Virus record (IMG/VR): IMGVR_UViG_3300020045_007415
Span: 1 to 32,965 of that record
Direction: 5' to 3' (one strand)
Length of the DNA stretch: 32,965 bases
Origin: a virus
Taxonomy: Duplodnaviria > Caudoviricetes
The stretch's first letter is position 1. Each line of letters begins with the position of its first letter. Under the pieces are notes generated by a model that searched no databases, was not told the DNA's origin, and saw only the letters and a list, made by a program, of their open reading frames with translations. The position numbers and the translations under genes are program-made. Below are positions 4,232 to 20,256 of this stretch, piece by piece.

Positions 4232-4597
4232 ATGTCACAAATGGGAGTTTACAGGCTTCACAAATTAGCCAGAGTAGGTAACAATTTCACAAAAGATGTG
4301 AAAGTTAATTTAGAACGTGATTTACACGTTATCCAAAATGAATATGCAGAAACAATAAATGCACATTCAGAAGTAAACGGATTAGTTTATGAAAAAGATG
4401 AACAAGCAACAAAGTTGTATTTAGAAGGTAAGCCTTTCAAAGTGGTAAAAGAATACGTAAAATTTGAAGAGGTTAAAGACGACGAAAAAGAAGCTCTTTT
4501 AAAAGAGTATTTAGAACTACAAGGCGAACCAGCGAAAGGAACGTGGGGAGTTAAGAAATTAAAAGAAGAAATTGAGAAATTAAAAACAATTGAATAA
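4232..4597 (+). CDS. hypothetical head-module protein
   Basis: 121 aa between portal and scaffold; C-terminal short helical repeat-like motif (W..KKLKEEI). Confidence 0.6.
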   Translation: MSQMGVYRLHKLARVGNNFTKDVKVNLERDLHVIQNEYAETINAHSEVNGLVYEKDEQATKLYLEGKPFKVVKEYVKFEEVKDDEKEALLKEYLELQGEPAKGTWGVKKLKEEIEKLKTIE

Positions 4598-5034
4598 TGG
4601 CATTAGAAAACATTACAGAGCTGGAACAAGCTTTAGGAATTGAAGGCGGTAAGCTACAAGAAATGATTACAAGTGAAGAAGTTCACAAAATAGATTTATC
4701 TGAAAAGATAATTTTAGACAAACCAATTTATGATGAGCGTATTTCTAATATTAAAAAAGAAAGTTCACAACAAGCTTTAGAAGTAGCTATTAAAGAACAA
4801 CGAAATGCTTTAGGGTTAGATTTTCAAGGTAAAACGATGGAAAACCTTGTAACTGCATTAAAAGCTAAAGTAGAAGCCGAAAGTAAAATTGAACCTGAAA
4901 CAAAATACAAAACTCTAAAAGCAGATTTTGAAAAGTTACAGGAAAACTTACAACAAAAAGAAAATGAGTTTAACACTTTCAAATCAAAACCTATTTTATA
5001 TTTTTCTGTTTCTGTTAGTTTTTTCATAATTTAG
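4597..5034 (+). pseudogene. probable capsid scaffolding protein, truncated at about 4980 and fused to unrelated sequence
   Basis: Coiled-coil, E/K-rich protein switches abruptly to hydrophobic PILYFSVSVSFFII where repeat copy 2 begins; no capsid gene follows. Confidence 0.55.
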
Positions 5035-5066
5035 TTGTATCAATATTTACTATTTGTTCTTTAGGT
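4981..5066. repeat. 86-bp exact direct repeat, copy 2
   Basis: Identical to 124-209. Confidence 0.95.
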
Positions 5067-6268: not shown

Positions 6269-6302
6269 TTTGCCTTAGTTAGTTGCGTCAAGCGAATAGT
6301 TA
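6269..6302 (+). other. attI-like 34-bp array-terminal site, copy A
   Basis: 31/34 identical to the reverse complement of 19366-19399; ends in G|TTA at the first cassette boundary. Confidence 0.6.
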
Positions 6303-7397
6303 ACCGCTATTTTAAAAGACGTTCGGTAATCTTTCACGAACTTTAGCGAAAACGAAATGTTGAAGCGTTTTAAAATTAATAGTTGGGTTACGATTTTCTT
6401 TAACGAAATTCCAACATTCCTCTTTTACTATTTCGTAGTAAATTACATTTAATAATCTTGGTATCATTTTACTACTCCAACCATCAATACTTTCAATTTT
6501 AGCAAACTCTTTTTCGCAAAAAGCAATTGTAACATATTTTTCAGCAATTTCTTCTTCAACCATTCTTTTACCTTCAATAGTTGATTTTCCCATAACTTTA
6601 GCATGTTTCTCTTTAAACTCGCTTGTTACTATTTTTGCCCAAGTTTGGCGACCATATTTATTCTTATAATCGTAGTTTTTAACAACAATACCTTCTCCAT
6701 AACCTTTACCATCTTCAATAAGAAAATCGTTTTTCATTAATTGATTCACTAATTGTTCGTAATTACTATTTCTGATTACTGCGATTGGCGGTATGAAATC
6801 AATTTCGTGTTTCTCTAATAATGGCTTATAATCGTTGTAATGCAAATAATTAAACTTTTCATCTGCATCGTGTTGTAATTCTGATAAATCTCTATCTTCT
6901 ACAACTTCAAAAACATAAAACTTTCTCCAAGCATCGTTTCTGTAAGTTTTTAAAGAATGTGGCACAAGCCATTCGCCAAAAAGTCTATGTGTTGGGTTTT
7001 CTTTTAGATAATTTAATAAGTTTTCTTGTTTTAAAACCCATTCTAAAAATCCTGCATTATCTTTTTCAAGTGATAAATGACGTGTTCGACTTCCAGCTTG
7101 TATTTCTCCGTTATGAAGCCATACACTTGCATTTGTGCCATCAATTTTTGGGAATATGTGGCATTCTCCTAATTCAATGTTTTGAACTTCTGTAGTCCCA
7201 AATCTTTCTAAATGTTGATACTTTTTAAACATATTTATAAATTTTAATTTGATTAATAAAAAAAACAGCGGTTAACACACGTTTGGCAAAAAAGCGGGTT
7301 CGGTTATTAATTTAAAGTTTGTTTTTTCTTTATATGTTTTGGTGCTTAATCAAAAGTTTTGGTTTATTTATCCGCTTCTTCGCCAAGCACTAGGACG
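6300..7397. mobile_element. integron-like gene cassette A1 (RNA ligase plus attC-like site)
   Basis: Bounded by G|TT; GTTAACCGCTATTTT (6299-6313) pairs with AAAACAGCGGTTAAC (7262-7276). Confidence 0.7.
6312..7232 (-). CDS. RNA ligase (Rnl2-like nucleotidyltransferase)
   Basis: Motif I KIDGTN, motif Ia GSR, motif III FGEW, IIIa FYVFEV, IV GEGIVVK, V WAK. Confidence 0.85.
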   Translation of the reverse strand: MFKKYQHLERFGTTEVQNIELGECHIFPKIDGTNASVWLHNGEIQAGSRTRHLSLEKDNAGFLEWVLKQENLLNYLKENPTHRLFGEWLVPHSLKTYRNDAWRKFYVFEVVEDRDLSELQHDADEKFNYLHYNDYKPLLEKHEIDFIPPIAVIRNSNYEQLVNQLMKNDFLIEDGKGYGEGIVVKNYDYKNKYGRQTWAKIVTSEFKEKHAKVMGKSTIEGKRMVEEEIAEKYVTIAFCEKEFAKIESIDGWSSKMIPRLLNVIYYEIVKEECWNFVKENRNPTINFKTLQHFVFAKVRERLPNVF

Positions 7398-7400
7398 TTA
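7273..7400 (+). repeat. attC-like site (128 bp)
   Basis: TAAC at 7273, arms CGTTTGGCAAAAAAGCGG (7280-7297) and CCGCTTCTTCGCCAAGCA (7372-7389), ends GGACGTTA. Confidence 0.75.
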
Positions 7401-8269
7401 ACCGCTATTTTAGCTCAACCTTATCTATAATTATGCCTTTATAGTTAATCGGGTAAGGTAAGCGTTTTAAATAGTTGTAAGGCAATCCTAAAATAGTACA
7501 CATTTTTTTAAATCCTGTATAACCTTCAATTGTGGTTTCGGTTCTTACTATTATTGCGGTTCGCATGATATTATATTATATAAAATTGTTAATAAAACAA
7601 GAACTATAAAAATAGCATTAAACCATTCACTGCTTTCTTTTTTTGTCATCTTTTATAGTTATTATTTTCTTTTTTTTACCTAATTTTTTTACTGAAACAG
7701 GTTCGTAATAAGTGTTTCTAACTCTTTCTTGATAACTTGCACTATCAAAAGAATGTGCTATTATTAGAACTAAAATTATTCCTAAGATGATTAATATTGC
7801 CATGTTATTTAGTTTTTAAAATTATACAAAATACATTATATATAGATAAATCTAATGTGTTTAATTGTAACCATATAGATTTTATTTCTCCATAAGTTTC
7901 AGGTTCTACATTGTAAATCCAATCCCCAGTTTGGTCTTTCTTGTGAGAATATGCTATTCTTACATCGTTGTAAGATGAAATAGATAATAAAAAACTTTCG
8001 TTTTTAATTTTAATAGTTTTAACTGTTAAATCTGTTGTCATGTTTTCAGCTTGTTTTTTAGTTTCTAAAGTTGTCATAATTTCTATTTATTTATTATTAT
8101 AGTGTAAAGATAGTAATTATATTAACACTACAACTATAAAATTAAAAAAATCGATGAAATGCACTAAATTTTAACATTTGAATATAAAAACAGCGGTTAA
8201 CAAGTGTTTTGCTCAATTGTGCCGAAAGTAGTTTGCGGTTAGGCACAACTGAAGCAAAGCACTCGGACG
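7398..8269. mobile_element. integron-like gene cassette A2 (several small ORFs, own promoter, attC-like site)
   Basis: GTTAACCGCTATTTT (7397-7411) pairs with AAAACAGCGGTTAAC (8187-8201); contains ORF 7805-8077 and about three shorter - strand ORFs. Confidence 0.7.
7805..8077 (-). CDS. hypothetical protein (cassette cargo)
   Basis: 90-aa ORF with AATTATG start; TATCTTTA promoter-like motif at 8105-8112. Confidence 0.6.
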   Translation of the reverse strand: MTTLETKKQAENMTTDLTVKTIKIKNESFLLSISSYNDVRIAYSHKKDQTGDWIYNVEPETYGEIKSIWLQLNTLDLSIYNVFCIILKTK

Positions 8270-8272
8270 TTA
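8198..8272 (+). repeat. attC-like site (75 bp)
   Basis: TAAC A AGTGTTTTGCTCAATTGTGCC ... GGCACAACTGAAGCAAAGCACT CGGAC GTTA; imperfect hairpin with one extra base in one arm. Confidence 0.8.
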
Positions 8273-13679: not shown

Positions 13680-14390
13680 TTATTGTTTATAATGTTTAGG
13701 ATATGGTTCTTCTTTTAACAGGCATTTTTTCTTCAATTTTTGATTAATGAATTTAATGTAACGAAATTGTCTTAATGTGTGGCTTGTGCATCTTTCTTTA
13801 TTCGCTTGTAATAAATCATATTTTTTACCGCCAGCTTTTTTGCTTGTCATCATGCTATTATGATAAACAACCCCATCAAGTTCCCAAAATGTAGAAGTAT
13901 GTTCACCATAAAAATCAAAACTACAAGCTTGATAAACTATACCAAAACCTCCACATCTTTCATCTGCAAATGATTGTATCCATTTAATTTTAGGTAACTT
14001 TCTTTTAATATATTTAATTGAAAAAGATATTGCACGACTTTCGGGATATTTAGTTTCTATTTCATCACTTAACCACATTCTATTAAGTTCTAAGTATTCA
14101 TCCATTGCGGTATCTTTTACAACACTTCCACAACTTGCTGGATTCATAGCGTAGCCATATTGTAATACGCCTACAATTTTGTCATTTTCAAATACGCCTA
14201 AATTTATGTAAGTTCCGTTATAAACTTTTTTAGAATAATGATTTTCTATTATTGTTTTAATAGCCACATCTCTATTAATTTCCTTTACATAAAATTCATT
14301 GTTTCCAAATCCTATGCAATCACGTTCACCATATAAACTTATTTGGTCGGATAGTATATATTTATTTATTATTTTATCTGTTACGTTCAT
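13680..14390 (-). CDS. Mom-like adenine-modifying GNAT-fold enzyme
   Basis: NHYS.K...LGVF...GVLQYG...ELNRMWL...ESRAI...IQSFADERCG..GIVYQA..F motif series. Confidence 0.8.
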   Translation of the reverse strand: MNVTDKIINKYILSDQISLYGERDCIGFGNNEFYVKEINRDVAIKTIIENHYSKKVYNGTYINLGVFENDKIVGVLQYGYAMNPASCGSVVKDTAMDEYLELNRMWLSDEIETKYPESRAISFSIKYIKRKLPKIKWIQSFADERCGGFGIVYQACSFDFYGEHTSTFWELDGVVYHNSMMTSKKAGGKKYDLLQANKERCTSHTLRQFRYIKFINQKLKKKCLLKEEPYPKHYKQ

Positions 14391-15014: not shown

Positions 15015-15257
15015 TTAAATATTTTTTAAAAATAACATTGAGATTATAAGACCAAATAAAGAACCGAATCCAGCGCCAATAGAATAAATAATTCTATCTT
15101 TAAAAGTTCCAAATGCTATTTTTTTAACATTCCAGCTCCAAATTAAAGAAATTATAGTTCCACAAAAAAACACTCCTAAATAAAATCCTTTACTAATAAA
15201 ATAAGTATTAATTGCTACAAAAAATACTTGTACAAAACCCGTTATAAATAATTTCAT
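15015..15257 (-). CDS. small membrane protein
   Basis: Three hydrophobic segments in 80 aa. Confidence 0.65.
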   Translation of the reverse strand: MKLFITGFVQVFFVAINTYFISKGFYLGVFFCGTIISLIWSWNVKKIAFGTFKDRIIYSIGAGFGSLFGLIISMLFLKNI

Positions 15258-15637
15258 AATTCACATTTACAATTTCCTAATTCATCCCAATTACCACAAC
15301 AAGGTTTTTTATATCTTGTATCAAATTCTTTTTTAAATTCGTGCATATAACTTAAAAACATTGCATTACATAAAATATGCCCAGTATGTGGTAAGCCTGT
15401 TTCTTTGTCATTATCCTCTCCGTTTAGATATGCCGTTAAATGTCTAATAAGGCTTTCAGCTACTTCAGTAGTTTTTAGTCCTTTTTTCCAATTGTGGTCA
15501 TCATATTTTTGTGCTCCAAATTCCAAAACTTTAACCATTGGTTTAAGGCTTTCAAAATCAACTAAAGACCAACGCTCTTTTCCTTCGTTAAATCTCATTC
15601 CTTTTTCTTCTAATGTTGGTTTATTTTTCATAATCAT
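15254..15637 (-). CDS. dATP/dGTP diphosphohydrolase domain protein (DUF5664-like)
   Basis: GK.RWSL...VLEFGA.KY..HNWKKG...SL.RHL..Y..GED.D.ETGLPH..H..CNAMFL. Confidence 0.8.
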   Translation of the reverse strand: MIMKNKPTLEEKGMRFNEGKERWSLVDFESLKPMVKVLEFGAQKYDDHNWKKGLKTTEVAESLIRHLTAYLNGEDNDKETGLPHTGHILCNAMFLSYMHEFKKEFDTRYKKPCCGNWDELGNCKCEL

Positions 15638-16435: not shown

Positions 16436-16573
16436 AACTATTTATTTTTAAATATTAATACTAAACCTAAACATACACACGCTAACATTAATAAGTAGCT
16501 TTCTGTATGTGTTCCTATTGTGCAAATCAATAAACCTGTAATTGTTTTCATAATTTATGTGTTTTAATTTTGA

Positions 16574-16687
16574 CAAATGTACGACTTATTTTCATATATA
16601 CAAATTTATAAGTATGTAAATTAGTAATTTATAATGAATATAAATAACAATACAAATTTGTTAGTTTGTAAAATAGTTGTATATTTG
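16574..16687. promoter_or_regulatory. divergent promoter pair (TACATTTG on - at 16574-16581; TATATTTG on + at 16680-16687)
   Basis: Both match TAnnTTTG at the point where gene orientation switches. Confidence 0.65.
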
Positions 16688-16707
16688 CCTTATAAAATTT
16701 TAATATT

Positions 16708-17205
16708 ATGAAAATCACAAAGAAACAAATCGTCGCATTAGACAAAAACGAAACAACAGTTAGAGAGTTATTCCCTGAAGTGTTTGAAACTAAATTAGAA
16801 GACAATACTTATTACATTTTTGAATCTGGAGAAATTCAATTTAATGTAAAAGATGGAGGAGGTTATGGATTTAATAAATTTGGATTTCACGAAGAAGTAA
16901 AATGGGTAAAATATCCACACAACGGAGTTTACAGAAAAGCCACCAAAGAAGAAGTAGAAACCGCTTTGATTAATGAAGCTAAAAGAAGAGGGTTTAAAAA
17001 AGGAGTAAAAATAAAAGATGTTACTTTTTTGGATATCGATTATGTTAGAGATAATTCTTTTGTATATTATCCACTTATAAATAGGTTGCAAAGTAAAGCA
17101 GTAATTTTTGATAATGGCACTTGGGCAGAAATTATCAAACCTAAACAAATGACAAAAGAAGAAATTGAAAAAGAACTTGGTTACGAAATTGAAATTAAAT
17201 TATAA
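16708..17205 (+). CDS. hypothetical protein
   Basis: 165 aa; AT.EEV..ALI.EAK.RG and C-terminal MTKEEIEKELGY motifs. Confidence 0.7.
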   Translation: MKITKKQIVALDKNETTVRELFPEVFETKLEDNTYYIFESGEIQFNVKDGGGYGFNKFGFHEEVKWVKYPHNGVYRKATKEEVETALINEAKRRGFKKGVKIKDVTFLDIDYVRDNSFVYYPLINRLQSKAVIFDNGTWAEIIKPKQMTKEEIEKELGYEIEIKL

Positions 17206-17353
17206 ATATTATGAAAAAAACAATTAAAAAAAGAAGACAATTTAAAAATCAATTAATGAAGTCTAAATTTATGAAAACATGCCCAGTTGGTGGAGGAATT
17301 TGTTTAAACCCTATTTGTGCATTTGGTTGCATTGAACGATAATACTATAAATA

Positions 17354-17572
17354 ATGAAAGAAAAGTATAAAAAATTAGACAAGAAAACAGCTTTTTTAAA
17401 ATCTGTAGCAATTAGATTAGGCGTTGAATTAGCAACTTTAAAAGGTTATTTTACTGAAAATGGAACTATCCCTGCTAAACACAAAGAAAGAATAGAAAAA
17501 GCTATTGAATTGCAACTGTTGGCAGATGAGAAAATAAGACAAATTGAAGTAGATGTTTTTGAGAAAATATAA
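17354..17572 (+). CDS. putative HTH (Cro-like) DNA-binding protein
   Basis: VAIRLGVELATLKGYF; its stop TAA is the TAA of the first TAAC of the array. Confidence 0.5.
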   Translation: MKEKYKKLDKKTAFLKSVAIRLGVELATLKGYFTENGTIPAKHKERIEKAIELQLLADEKIRQIEVDVFEKI

Positions 17573-17698
17573 CGTTATCAGGCTTTGTGTCTGTTGCGTG
17601 CAAACAAACCAAAACATTAATTTAAACACTAAAAAATACAGATTATGACTAAACAAAATTTAAACACCGAGCCAAGCAATAGCACAAAACCTGTGTTA
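17570..17698 (-). repeat. attC-like site (129 bp)
   Basis: + strand TAAC (17570), arms CAGGCTTTGTGTCTGTTGC (17579-17597) and GCAATAGCACAAAACCTG (17676-17693, one-base bulge), GTTA (17695). Confidence 0.75.
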
Positions 17699-17953
17699 TG
17701 TGATGCTTTTATTGATGCTTTACCTAATACAAATGAAAAAATAATTGATAAATACATTAAACAAATATCAACTGAATTATATCATTTGTCTAAAGAATTT
17801 GAAGCTAATGGAGATACAAATGCTCATGTAAATGCAAGATGTGAAATAAATAAAAAATATGGTAAGTTTTGGCGTGAAAGATTGAATATGAAAAAGATTT
17901 ACAATTCCCCTAATCCCTTCGGAAAGATGTCGTACTACTAAAGTATCACATAA
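17573..17953. mobile_element. integron-like cassette B4
   Basis: GTTATGTGATGCTTT (17695-17709) pairs with AAAGTATCACATAAC (17940-17954). Confidence 0.7.
17645..17941 (+). CDS. hypothetical protein (cassette cargo, starts inside the attC loop)
   Basis: 98 aa; residues SNSTKPVLCDAF are encoded by the hairpin arm and core. Confidence 0.6.
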   Translation: MTKQNLNTEPSNSTKPVLCDAFIDALPNTNEKIIDKYIKQISTELYHLSKEFEANGDTNAHVNARCEINKKYGKFWRERLNMKKIYNSPNPFGKMSYY

Positions 17954-18168
17954 CGTTATCACAGCTTGTTGCAGTTGCAAAGATTAATAACTAAACATTA
18001 CAAAAATTATGAAACTTTTAGATATAGCTAAAAATTTAGCAAACAGAATAAACCAAGAACATTATATTGTACACGAACTTAAAAAAGTATTCGATACAGC
18101 TTACAAATTAGGATTTGAAGAAGCTAACAAACAAAACCAATCCTTGCAATTGCAACAAGCTGGTGTTA
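17951..18168 (-). repeat. attC-like site (218 bp, long coding loop)
   Basis: Arms CAGCTTGTTGCAGTTGCAAAGATT (17962-17985) and AATCCTTGCAATTGCAACAAGCTG (18139-18162). Confidence 0.75.
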
Positions 18169-18332
18169 TGCCTCGTTTATTTTATGTCGTTGCAAGAAAT
18201 TCAGAAGAAAATTTGGAACAAATAACACAAGGATTAGATACCTATGAAAAAGCTAAACATTTTAAGAATAGTGATTTTTGTAAAAAAAGATTTGAATATG
18301 CTTTTATTATATGCACTATAAATGAGGCATAA
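17954..18332. mobile_element. integron-like cassette B3
   Basis: GTTATGCCTCGTTTAT (18165-18180) pairs with ATAAATGAGGCATAAC (18318-18333). Confidence 0.7.
18009..18332 (+). CDS. hypothetical protein (cassette cargo, reads through the attC arm)
   Basis: 107 aa; SLQLQQAGVMPR is encoded by the arm and core; its stop is the TAA of the next TAAC. Confidence 0.65.
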   Translation: MKLLDIAKNLANRINQEHYIVHELKKVFDTAYKLGFEEANKQNQSLQLQQAGVMPRLFYVVARNSEENLEQITQGLDTYEKAKHFKNSDFCKKRFEYAFIICTINEA

Positions 18333-18456
18333 CGTTTTGTAGCTTGTTGCAGTGGCGTGCAAGTAAGTGAGTAGTTTCGGTTTAAAAACTATAATAACAG
18401 AGAAGCCAAATCATTAAATTAAACACGATACCAGCCATTGCTACAAACTACTGTTA
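18330..18456 (-). repeat. attC-like site (127 bp)
   Basis: Arms GTAGCTTGTTGCAGTGGC (18339-18356) and GCCATTGCTACAAACTAC (18434-18451). Confidence 0.75.
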
Positions 18457-18807
18457 TAAGCTGTTATCTTAATACTAAAAATTATGCCTTGTTACGACGG
18501 AAGAGACAACGAACCTAGAATTATTTATCAGGACAGAGATAATCCAGAAGATAAAAGAAAGATTGCAGAATTAATTGACCAAAACAGAAGATTAGAAGCT
18601 GGATTGTGTGCGATTATTACTGAATTAGAAAAAAAGAATATTGCAAATGAAGTTATTTCACAAGCAAGTAAAAGCGGATTAATTAATCTTATGGATTTTT
18701 GGCTACACCACAGCAAAGAAGATGAAACAAGATTAGCAAGAGAACTTCATAAGTTTAGCGAACACGAACAGATTATTTTACGTAGGCTTCTGAATAATAG
18801 CTTATAA
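18333..18807. mobile_element. integron-like cassette B2
   Basis: GTTATAAGCTGTTAT (18453-18467) pairs with ATAATAGCTTATAAC (18794-18808). Confidence 0.7.
18484..18807 (+). CDS. hypothetical protein (cassette cargo)
   Basis: 107 aa; MPCYDG...LCA...W..H..ED; its stop is the TAA of TAAC. Confidence 0.7.
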   Translation: MPCYDGRDNEPRIIYQDRDNPEDKRKIAELIDQNRRLEAGLCAIITELEKKNIANEVISQASKSGLINLMDFWLHHSKEDETRLARELHKFSEHEQIILRRLLNNSL

Positions 18808-18932
18808 CGTTCCCGCGCTACACGCAGGCTGGGATTAAAGATGCGTAATCTTTCGGTTAAAAACAAATATAAACAAGTACAAAATTATCAACAAATACAG
18901 CCAATTGCCCAGCTTGTTTGTAGCGTGTGTTA
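18805..18932 (-). repeat. attC-like site (128 bp)
   Basis: Arms GCGCTACACGCAGGCTGGG (18815-18833) and CCCAGCTTGTTTGTAGCGT (18908-18926). Confidence 0.75.
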
Positions 18933-19368
18933 GTGGCTGTGTTTTTAAACTCAAACGTAATGAAACTAAAATTTACCATTGATTATAAAGGATTAGAGGC
19001 ATATCTAAAGTCTTTGAATTATAAAACCGAAATAGAAACAACTTGGAACAAACCTCAAAACGCCAAACTAATAGAAGGAGTTGCTATGGATGATATTGAA
19101 TTTTTCAATAAAGACAAATCAAAAATTCCTTTAGAAAAAGTTATTGATTACGGAACTCCTTTTTTAGTTGATGCTTTAGGAAATGATTTATCAATTGTAA
19201 TTCTTTCAAGAAGAAAATACAGACTTCCAAACGGAAGGGCTATACGTGCTAAGTTTGTAACTACAGTTATAGAAGATTGCAGATATATATATGGCACTCC
19301 GTTAAATGGATATTGGAAAATACCAAATGAATTTATTAAACCTAAAGTTCTTATAACATAGCCACTAA
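18808..19368. mobile_element. integron-like cassette B1
   Basis: GTTAGTGGCTGTGTT (18929-18943) pairs with AACATAGCCACTAAC (19355-19369). Confidence 0.7.
18960..19361 (+). CDS. hypothetical protein (cassette cargo)
   Basis: The ORF track starts at GTG 18927; the in-frame ATG at 18960 is the more likely start. Confidence 0.6.
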   Translation: MKLKFTIDYKGLEAYLKSLNYKTEIETTWNKPQNAKLIEGVAMDDIEFFNKDKSKIPLEKVIDYGTPFLVDALGNDLSIVILSRRKYRLPNGRAIRAKFVTTVIEDCRYIYGTPLNGYWKIPNEFIKPKVLIT

Positions 19369-19399
19369 CTATTCGATTGGCGAAACTAACTAAGGCAAA
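19366..19399 (-). other. attI-like 34-bp array-terminal site, copy B
   Basis: + strand TAACTATTCGATTGGCGAAACTAACTAAGGCAAA versus TAACTATTCGCTTGACGCAACTAACTAAGGCAAA (6302->6269). Confidence 0.6.
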
Positions 19400-19402
19400 T
19401 AT

Positions 19403-19648
19403 ATGAAAATAAATATTTTATATCGTTTTAAAATTTACACAAATTTAATAGTAGACGATAATAAAAACATTTGGGAGTTGCCAAATTGCCCTAAAAAAAG
19501 AACGCGTAATTTAAGAAAATTAACTTATTACAAAGAGCGTGATGCTTATCGTTATAAAAATCAATATTTATCACGTAAGAGATTATCACGCTTGATGTAT
19601 AGAGTTAATGAAACTTTCGGTAAAGAATATAACATTTTACCATTTTAA
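19403..19648 (+). CDS. hypothetical basic protein
   Basis: 81-aa K/R-rich ORF. Confidence 0.55.
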   Translation: MKINILYRFKIYTNLIVDDNKNIWELPNCPKKRTRNLRKLTYYKERDAYRYKNQYLSRKRLSRLMYRVNETFGKEYNILPF

Positions 19649-19684
19649 TTATTACATTTGTTTAACTAACTAAAAATTAAGATT

Positions 19685-20053
19685 ATGAACTTACAACTTT
19701 CATTAAAAAAGCAATGGTTTGAAATGACTAAAGCAGGAATTAAAACCGAAGATTATAGAGAGATAACTCCTTATTGGGTTAAAAGATTAGTTGAGCCAAA
19801 CGATGAAGGCGTTACTATTGAAGCTGTAATATACTATTTAAACGGAGGTAAGCAACATGCTTTTTATAGTGATAAATTTGAATTAAAAAAATTTGTTCAC
19901 AACATCATGACTTTAGGCTATCCAAAATCAACCGACACGGAACGTATTTTTAAACTTGAACACAAAGGAATTGAAATTCGTACTGGCAATCCTGAATTGG
20001 GAGCAGAGCCAAATAAACTTTATTTTGTCATTAAACATGGAAAAATTATTTAA
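19685..20053 (+). CDS. ASCH/PUA-like domain protein
   Basis: L.LKKQWFEM..AG.K.EDYRE..PYW..RL, GYP, YFVI..G; TACATTTG motif upstream (19653-19660). Confidence 0.75.
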   Translation: MNLQLSLKKQWFEMTKAGIKTEDYREITPYWVKRLVEPNDEGVTIEAVIYYLNGGKQHAFYSDKFELKKFVHNIMTLGYPKSTDTERIFKLEHKGIEIRTGNPELGAEPNKLYFVIKHGKII

Positions 20054-20064
20054 TAATTATAAAA

Positions 20065-20256
20065 ATGAAAAAAACACTAATACTATTAACCGCATTTTTA
20101 AAAAATCTAATTATCTTTTTTAAATACAAAAAAGAAAACACACAAAACTTGCAAGAAAACACAAATAACTTACAAGATAAATTTTATATGTATTTTAAAA
20201 AAGAAATTGATTCGGAAATAAAAAAAGAAGAAAAATATAAATCTTGGAACATTTAA
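20065..20256 (+). CDS. hypothetical protein
   Basis: 63-aa ORF. Confidence 0.45.
   Translation: MKKTLILLTAFLKNLIIFFKYKKENTQNLQENTNNLQDKFYMYFKKEIDSEIKKEEKYKSWNI

Follow-up and report, generated by a model that had tools for sequence, protein, structure and literature searches.

The virus record IMGVR_UViG_3300020045_007415 (Duplodnaviria; Caudoviricetes) is the 32,965-base sequence of a tailed phage, analysed here over its whole length and called the window below; at positions 17573 to 19368 it carries an integron-like array of four cassettes, in each of which the gene lies behind its own hairpin instead of in front of it. On the + (coding) strand, four long imperfect attC-like hairpins begin with TAACGTT and end with TGTTA, and the array closes with a hairpin-less TAAC at 19366-19369. 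An earlier note, made from these letters alone, had read the non-coding strand of each hairpin as TAACA ... ACGTTA, and the four hairpins bear this out. It is quite probable, judging from sequence, that such arrays belong to phages of Bacteroidota, that the TAAC core is where an Xer-like recombinase of the host, acting in trans, adds and removes units, and that the hairpin loops supply start codons to the genes behind them.

The phage array and the polarity of its genes

Cut after the TAA of each TAAC, the array falls into units of 381, 379, 475 and 561 bp, the same lengths that the earlier note had given. Cassette 1 (17573..17953, +, 381 bp) consists of the 129-nt hairpin 1 (17570..17698), whose loop holds the ATG at 17645 and a leader of 17 codons, and a cargo that completes the open reading frame (ORF) 17645-17941 (98 amino acids). 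Cassette 2 (17954..18332, +, 379 bp) begins with the 218-nt hairpin 2 (17951..18168), which is of the long-loop type and encodes in its loop the first 52 residues of ORF 18009-18332 (107 amino acids), a hybrid of leader and cargo joined at the Val codon of GTTA. Cassette 3 (18333..18807, +, 475 bp) comprises the 127-nt hairpin 3 (18330..18456) and ORF 18484-18807 (107 amino acids), which has its own start; copies of this hairpin with 89–95% identity stand before unrelated genes in other phages. Cassette 4 (18808..19368, +, 561 bp) contains the 128-nt hairpin 4 (18805..18932, +) and an ORF that most likely runs from ATG 18960 to 19361 (133 amino acids). GTG 18927 was rejected as its start, most of the 120 listed homologues being 126–135 amino acids long. 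The 72-residue ORF 17354..17572 (+) precedes the array and takes its stop codon, TAA, from the first TAAC, which may represent the left half of the original insertion site. ORFs 18009 and 18484 also stop at the TAA of a TAAC, as had been noticed for several of these genes, and ORF 17645 and the fourth ORF stop 12 and 7 nt earlier, respectively. PHROGs, Pfam and a protein atlas returned no function for the four cargos.

The site finder, which demanded the TAACG/GTTA geometry and the first three outer pairs, detected six attC-like sites in the window, compared with 0, 0, 0, 0, 0, 0, 0 and 1 in eight shuffled sequences. Rfam gave no matches within the window, and an exact-repeat search of the window failed to bring the hairpins together. 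Behind each second core, 13 of 14 nt of the flank are complementary to the end of the unit to which it belongs, and 6–9 of 14 to the ends of other units. The cargos are therefore discrete modules, each framed by its own inverted repeat. This complementarity was tried as proof of the cut site and dropped, because both cargo flanks travel together under either model, and the polarity rests on comparison instead.

A terminal attI-like site had also been proposed, and both its position and comparison support it. The hairpin-less half-site at 19366..19398 (+) is identical at 30 of 33 nt to the end of a second array on the opposite strand of the window, and similar half-sites occur at Flavobacterium recombinase loci. 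One phage locus (L013) has the same terminal site and the same next gene as the window, with homology starting at 19366 and other cassettes in front. The half-site is thus a good candidate for the point at which new cassettes are inserted. The exact terminal-site pattern was present in none of 150 loci, and the likeness is visible only in alignment. Relatives of ORF 19685 (26 loci) were considered as a source of an empty site and proved too distant.

To place the gene order of the array, we compared the window and 24 viral loci, collected with a pattern built on hairpins 2 and 3, with a bacterial set obtained with a second pattern (127 genome stretches, about 880 estimated; nearly all among the 80 listed are Bacteroidota). 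The longest ORF is hairpin-first in 88 of the 93 phage cassettes with a defined end (opposite in two, absent in three; some rows are merged neighbours), whereas 83 of 101 bacterial cassettes show the classical order, 14 are reversed and four have no ORF. Phage-like loop-start genes at two loci account for four of the 14 reversed bacterial cassettes, and an unpublished genome (L046) contributes two of the 101. Reversed loop-start cassettes were noted in the bacterial bins L084 and L093, which are probably prophage or phage contigs.

The sites themselves have the same geometry on both sides. The 5' spacer is 4 nt longer in 124 of 166 phage and 64 of 78 bacterial sites, a G-T pair occupies outer position 7 in 149 of 166 and 64 of 78, and a C-A mismatch at inner position 5 is common to both. 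The site therefore keeps its polarity, and it is the gene that has been turned round. The TAACG-first strand has the lower folding energy in 160 of 166 phage and 71 of 78 bacterial sites; because this strand is non-coding in bacteria, the bias is a property of the DNA and no effect of mRNA. It fits the bottom strand of Nivina et al. (PMC5027507), and the bottom strand of aadA7 printed by Qi et al. (PMC9892861) likewise starts with TAACG and ends with TGTTA. The reversed polarity first suggested by the window alone is thus upheld by the contrast between phage and bacterial cassettes, and by recent events described below that cut at TAAC. The suggested likeness to the VCR sites of Vibrio does not hold: these sites form instead a Bacteroidota family that departs from classical integrons in the RYYYAAC motif, the spacers and the IntI enzyme.

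The same data bear on the alternative that classical cassettes, gene first and attC second, were inserted backwards by top-strand recombination, as drawn in Figure 1D of Nivina et al. 2016 (PMC5027507), or that only GTTA is cut. Top-strand recombination does exist at low frequency (PMC5027507), and exchange at GTTA is seen here. However, the cut core is placed, with respect to the long spacer and the G-T pair, just as it is in bacterial arrays; the hairpin travels with its downstream gene in 12 comparisons to one and in all six recent events; and every array would have to begin with an orphan hairpin and end with a gene that has none. We regard this alternative as largely refuted and scarcely credible.

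Exchange at the two cores

Evidence for exchange at TAAC comes from unit pairs and from cultured phages. Unit pairs were drawn from the 226 of 248 phage units that have full flanks. Among pairs with the same hairpin, 12 have the same downstream and a different upstream neighbour, one has the reverse, two agree on both sides and 104 differ on both; among pairs with the same upstream end, the next hairpin is different in 18 of 22. A copy of hairpin 1 that is 85–88% identical occurs in 46 Flavobacterium phage records, from which we analysed 12 genomes of cultured Baltic phages (Muminvirus/Lillamyvirus on Flavobacterium sp. LMO6/LMO9). These carry 10–15 cassettes each, ending in a half-site. Sister isolates differ by a whole hairpin plus its downstream gene, and all six events break at TAAC: deletions of 506 bp (mumin6-1/6-3), 439 bp (sniff9-1/9-2) and, at the terminal site, 342 bp (snork6-1/6-2), a 476 bp deletion and a 794-bp insertion (lillamy9-1/morran9-1), and a 728/468-bp swap between sister phages. 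The breakpoints share about 6–8 nt, except for 12 nt in one. In the snusmum pair the hairpin has changed in front of one cargo.

Exchange is also found at the second core. Of the 20 homologues of ORF 18009, 16 share its C-terminal half, to which five other types of leader are attached, another shares part of that half, and three share its N-terminal half and continue into a different C-terminus; the two halves meet at the Val codon of GTTA. The leader of ORF 18009 has been seen with three other C-termini. A search of viral contigs for ORF 18009 found no real relative. In the long-loop family a given leader can be followed by different cargos, and a given cargo preceded by different leaders. 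The cultured phages have hairpin 1 and its EPSNSTKP leader in front of another cargo, joined at GTTA in the same frame. In these phages three of 26 cargos occur with two hairpins and four of 25 hairpins with two cargos. Among the 226 phage units, the hairpins differ in 10 of 25 same-cargo pairs. It follows from this re-pairing at GTTA that the loop-start proteins, here those of ORFs 17645 and 18009, are hybrids. The exchange at GTTA is likely to be a rarer, top-strand recombination. The earlier note had placed the cut at TAAC, which stands, and had left the second core unused, which does not, since hairpins and cargos have been re-paired exactly at GTTA. Such exchange had been named beforehand as an outcome contrary to the proposed polarity, and nevertheless leaves that polarity standing. 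Comparison among related genomes thus establishes the unit boundaries, the polarity, the exchange at TAAC and the re-pairing of hairpins and cargos at GTTA.

The cargos look like captured phage genes. ORF 17645 has 66 homologues with many different leaders, several of which, at the protein level, begin at a Met of their own near the position of the core. The gene of ORF 18484 also lies behind another hairpin (L178) and is hairpin-free in seven further loci (L179-L185). In contigs from two further studies, cassette 3 is covered over its whole length, TAAC to TAAC (18329/18330 to 18811/18812).

Probable starts within the loop, and expression

ORFs 17645 and 18009 have their starts 50 and 156 nt ahead of the second core, and the hairpin arm forms part of both translations (STKPVLCDAF and LQLQQAGVMPR). 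That these two ORFs start inside the loop, as the earlier note had it, is supported by the frames of loop ATGs, by start context and by the pattern of substitution. Of 168 phage cassettes, 51 have a frame that stays open from the core through the cargo, without ATG in the first 70 nt, 50 have an ATG of their own and 67 have a closed frame. An in-frame loop ATG is present for 49 of the 51 start-less cargos, compared with 16 of 102 off-frame cases and 61 of 495 bacterial hairpin frames; for short hairpins the figure is 27 of 28 distinct start-less cargos. All three loop-start frames occur (38, 12 and 1). Half of the 50 own-ATG cassettes also have a loop ATG, the other ATG often being in the core itself. 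A weight matrix made from 45 genes of the window ranks the ATGs at 17645 and 18009 at percentiles 95 and 96 among all ATGs, and the core ATG 18168 at percentile 73. In 16 of 16 cases that have both, the loop ATG outscores the core ATG. The ratio pN/pS (non-synonymous to synonymous change) is 0.21 in long-loop leaders (10 overlapping pairs, 57 changes).

These results speak against the possibility that the polarity is right and the loop ORFs are extended by chance through A-rich DNA with few stops, the true starts lying at or behind the core and the hairpins acting on RNA in processing or termination. The core ATG 18168 is in frame with ORF 18009, the loops are 49% A in phage sites (35% in bacterial sites), and the protein search is blind to forms shorter than 58 amino acids, all of which would suit chance extension. 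However, the next in-frame ATG of ORF 17645 comes only at residue 82, 47 of 49 long-loop hairpins keep an ORF of 40–56 codons in one frame, no + strand terminator is predicted, and the frame counts, context scores and pN/pS given above point the same way. We consider this account very improbable. Loop starts are well supported by the comparisons, and the leaders would then be translated from the loop. Ribosomes of Flavobacterium use upstream adenines and not a Shine-Dalgarno sequence (PMC6847099), and because of this the A-rich bottom-strand loop offers a ready-made start site, which likely explains why the reversal works in Bacteroidota.

A motif scan predicted a Bacteroidota-type promoter (TTTG, 19-nt spacer, TATATTTG) at 16658..16687 (+), at the head of the rightward operon that includes array 1; the published consensus is TTTG/TANNTTTG (PMC6847099). 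A mirror-image motif at about 16603-16574 faces left. No + strand terminator was predicted in 16500-20100. A sigma-70 promoter scan, which does not cover Bacteroidota promoters, was at chance level (18 against 21.1), and some cassettes of relatives carry a promoter motif of their own. The earlier suggestion of a phage promoter at the distal end thus agrees with the predicted motif and the lack of a predicted terminator, and expression of array 1 by read-through, the other half of that suggestion, is likely, though we infer it. As side observations, a promoter-like Bacteroidota motif runs antisense from hairpin 4 (18894-18864, − strand), and the −7 motif is commoner on the TAACA-first strand (51 versus 12 of 238 phage sites and 30 versus 4 of 192 bacterial sites), perhaps reflecting composition or a promoter for the next cassette in host arrays.

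The recombinase, the proposed mechanism and known systems

The window has no integrase among its 55 ORFs, and tblastn with three array-associated recombinases found nothing in it at E ≤ 1; its recombination genes are NinB/Orf and NinG/Rap. The tyrosine recombinase motif set was found in 9 of 151 loci. All seven array-associated enzymes scanned score 150–226 bits on TIGR02249 (cut-off 265), in two stretches, and the enzyme of phage L003 has 33 residues where the integron integrase VchIntIA (2a3v) has 80, that is, it is without the IntI insertion. This 266-residue Xer-like recombinase (1106-1906, − strand) starts 56 bp behind the terminal site and is co-directional with the cassette genes. In bacteria the recombinase gene mostly precedes the cassettes and reads in their direction (divergent in L064), and at Flavobacterium recombinase loci a half-site lies about 105 bp behind the gene in five of 12. 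Among cultured phages, the L003 recombinase matched only phage integrases of 32–36% identity, and none in the Muminvirus/Lillamyvirus records, at E ≤ 1e-30. In the genus sample of Flavobacterium, 72 of 121 genomes have a recombinase match at E ≤ 1e-50, and all five named Flavobacterium genomes have the enzyme (one is the unpublished G005). A Bacteroidota host is indicated because the hairpins of the window match those of Flavobacterium phages and Bacteroidota chromosomes. Supply of the recombinase in trans by such a host is plausible from these distributions.

On the host side, the hairpin family bounds tet(X), an OXA-1327-family class D beta-lactamase gene and aadS, all in classical polarity (L025, L030, L063, L083 and L086), and the recombinase is therefore of wider interest. 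The same bacterial records contain an Lnu(H)-like gene below the cut-off, as well as ereD, erm(F) and mef(C), which lie between hairpins and on the other strand.

Several points weigh against a cassette system of this kind. The 104 pairs with a common hairpin and neither neighbour in common imply that the link between hairpin and cargo is loose over longer times, and among 21 cargos shared by the 12 cultured phages one preceding hairpin is kept for 18 and one following hairpin for 13. The counts are not independent, since the phages are related and the long-loop family was gathered by an arm pattern. The 342 bp deletion also has a 12-nt direct repeat. Three kinds of mosaic are accounted for by neither core: one hairpin, with its 5' leader and a 3' end of about 20 nt, encloses unrelated ORFs (L005, L006, L007, L009, L010 and L018, of the hairpin 3 family; L008, L017, L021, L022 and L024); one arm pair encloses unrelated loop ORFs; and the first nine codons of one methyltransferase leader recur under three different arm pairs. 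Short-homology recombination is the obvious candidate for these. As to the enzyme, 49 of the 121 sampled Flavobacterium genomes lack a recombinase match at E ≤ 1e-50. The one site of the hairpin family assayed in print, P12002L_attC1, did not recombine with IntI1 (PMC9892861), which says nothing about a cognate enzyme and nevertheless removes direct support. The recombinase, the recombining strand and the starts are all deduced from DNA. At most 0.13 of the words were found in sequencing runs, and the four RNA-labelled runs consist of contigs, three of them probably DNA.

Part of this evidence would suit a different reading, in which the hairpins are merely dispersed repeats for homologous or micro-homologous recombination by the phage, with no site-specific enzyme. 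The promoter/stem-loop modules of T4-type phages are comparable dispersed repeats. NinB/Orf and NinG/Rap in a window without integrase, the mosaics within hairpins and cargos, which need more than cleavage at a core, and the one deletion with a 12-nt direct repeat all favour it. However, the other breakpoints share only about 6–8 nt and all lie on TAAC, despite longer homology in the arms; the arrays end in a half-site that adjoins a tyrosine recombinase in bacteria and in phage L003; and the strand-asymmetric geometry of the sites is kept. This reading thus appears unlikely to us.

In the recombinase-based mechanism that we prefer, the + strand would fold and serve as the recombining (bottom) strand, and the TAAC core on this folded coding strand would be cut, likely by a host Xer-like cassette recombinase acting in trans. 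New units would be added at the terminal half-site, the end farthest from the promoter, and would be transcribed by read-through from the phage operon promoter, while the A-rich loop would probably give start-less cargos their start codon. A less frequent exchange at the second core, likely on the top strand and by the same enzyme, would join a leader to a new cargo, and only joins matched in frame would be kept. The payoff may be a quick trade of accessory genes, for example of DNA methyltransferases against host restriction. A bolder version, which we put forward as possible rather than probable, is that this amounts to two-core protein shuffling on a host recombinase that is not IntI: core 1 would move units and core 2 would join leaders to start-less bodies of phage genes, so that new hybrids and cassettes could arise from ordinary phage genes, and the reversal would silence host defence cassettes in the phage and phage cassettes in the host.

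The origin of integron cassettes is an open question. Intermediates in the building of a cassette may be directly comparable here, because the same gene is found free and behind two hairpins and because hairpins lend starts. Correct orientation of cassettes has been held essential (PMC5027507).

Nilsson et al. 2020 (PMC7077304) reported that the LMO9-grown phages that plate 3–4 log lower on LMO6 lack one methyltransferase; integrons and cassettes are not mentioned in the available portions of that paper. In its accessible tables only the column LMO9_12.orf_13 splits the groups, being present in nine of nine high platers and absent from 11 of 11 low platers; among these 20 isolates, morran9-1 was taken from the text and seven are near-identical lillamy isolates. 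LMO9_12.orf_13 is the gene mumin gp013, a cassette of 893 bp with its ATG 69 nt ahead of the core, and presence or absence of this cassette was confirmed in the 12 genomes that we analysed. The loop start is likely in this case, although the mumin copy has an internal Met at residue 38. A cultured, non-pathogenic set of phages and hosts, with a methyltransferase cassette that matches a 1,000- to 10,000-fold difference in plating, makes the recombinase, the strand and the start testable in one system.

In several respects the array resembles classical integrons as described in the available text of Nivina et al. (PMC5027507): single-gene units are bounded by imperfect hairpins, AAC is conserved at the cut, a hairpin-less insertion site lies at one end (here by position and comparison), and the strand that is probably cut has a folding bias, G-T pairs and a purine excess. 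In contrast to classical integrons, the gene lies on that strand behind its own hairpin and can probably start inside the loop; RYYYAAC is present in 0 of 5 window, 13 of 238 phage and 9 of 192 bacterial sites; the spacers are about 5 and 1 nt instead of 5–6 nt on both arms; no bases are bulged in fixed positions, where classical sites have 2–3 extrahelical bases, a 5' bulge improving the alignment in only 56 of 166 sites; and the outer stem has at least 10 pairs, with G-T at position 7. The associated recombinase is without the IntI insertion, intI is absent beside the array, and no cassette promoter (Pc) was seen at the insertion site. The array is best filed as one that works like an integron yet departs from several of the features by which integrons are recognized, and its reversed layout as new.

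Two other systems are close to it. The rAID-1 elements of Bacteroidales (Ross et al., bioRxiv 10.1101/471110) have a 5' XerD-like recombinase, required to be >44% identical to B. fragilis BF9343_RS08045, at least two co-directional genes and repeats 'reminiscent of integrons'. Bacterial loci with our hairpins (for example L035, L053, L070 and L077) match this layout. In contrast to rAID-1, no recombinase was found in the window, whose genes read towards the insertion site and not away from it; the rAID-1 account, as far as available, gives no hairpin, cut site or phage form. Phage CALINs (clusters of attC sites lacking an integrase), described by Qi et al. 2023 (PMC9892861), are integrase-free attC clusters in virulent phages with methyltransferase cargo, and one of their sites, P12002L_attC1, shares the geometry of our hairpin family. 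The window, too, has at least two attC-like sites within 3–4 kb and no intI (four and two sites, by our finder). The accessible part of that paper ascribes the 'divergent directions' in P12002L to mosaicism, and contains no reversed polarity, loop start or hybrid protein. In Polaribacter phage P12002L (L264) our finder located 10 hairpin-first sites, long-loop types included and with cores that are often CAAC/GTTG, compared with the two sites tested by Qi et al. Reversed cassettes and loop starts are not described in the literature that we searched, which covers few subscription journals, and the portions available of PMC12614218 contain nothing on reversed cassettes.

The window as a whole has a G+C content of 23–33%, and outside the arrays it encodes the terminase, portal, holin, CHAP endolysin, tape measure and tail genes of a tailed phage. 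A gene for Mom-like DNA modification (13680-14390) and one for a dATP/dGTP pyrophosphohydrolase (15254-15637) also lie outside both arrays; the Mom-like gene of P12002L adjoins hairpins. A near-identical direct repeat of 94 nt (86 nt exact) occurs at 116-209, near the contig start, and at about 4974-5066, where it cuts into ORF 4597-5034 at a point of gene-direction change, possibly as a result of misassembly or rearrangement.

The second array lies on the − strand (8272-6300) and has the same terminus as array 1. Its first cassette (7399..8272, −, 872 bp) has a 75-nt hairpin (8272-8198) and ORF 8077-7805, and its second (6301..7400, −, 1098 bp) a 128-nt hairpin (7400-7273) and an RNA ligase ORF (7232-6312). 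The terminal attI-like half-site is at 6270..6302 (−), as aligned with the end of array 1. The ligase gene of this array sits behind a different hairpin in another locus (L167), and related ligases are cassettes in two more (L018 and L020).

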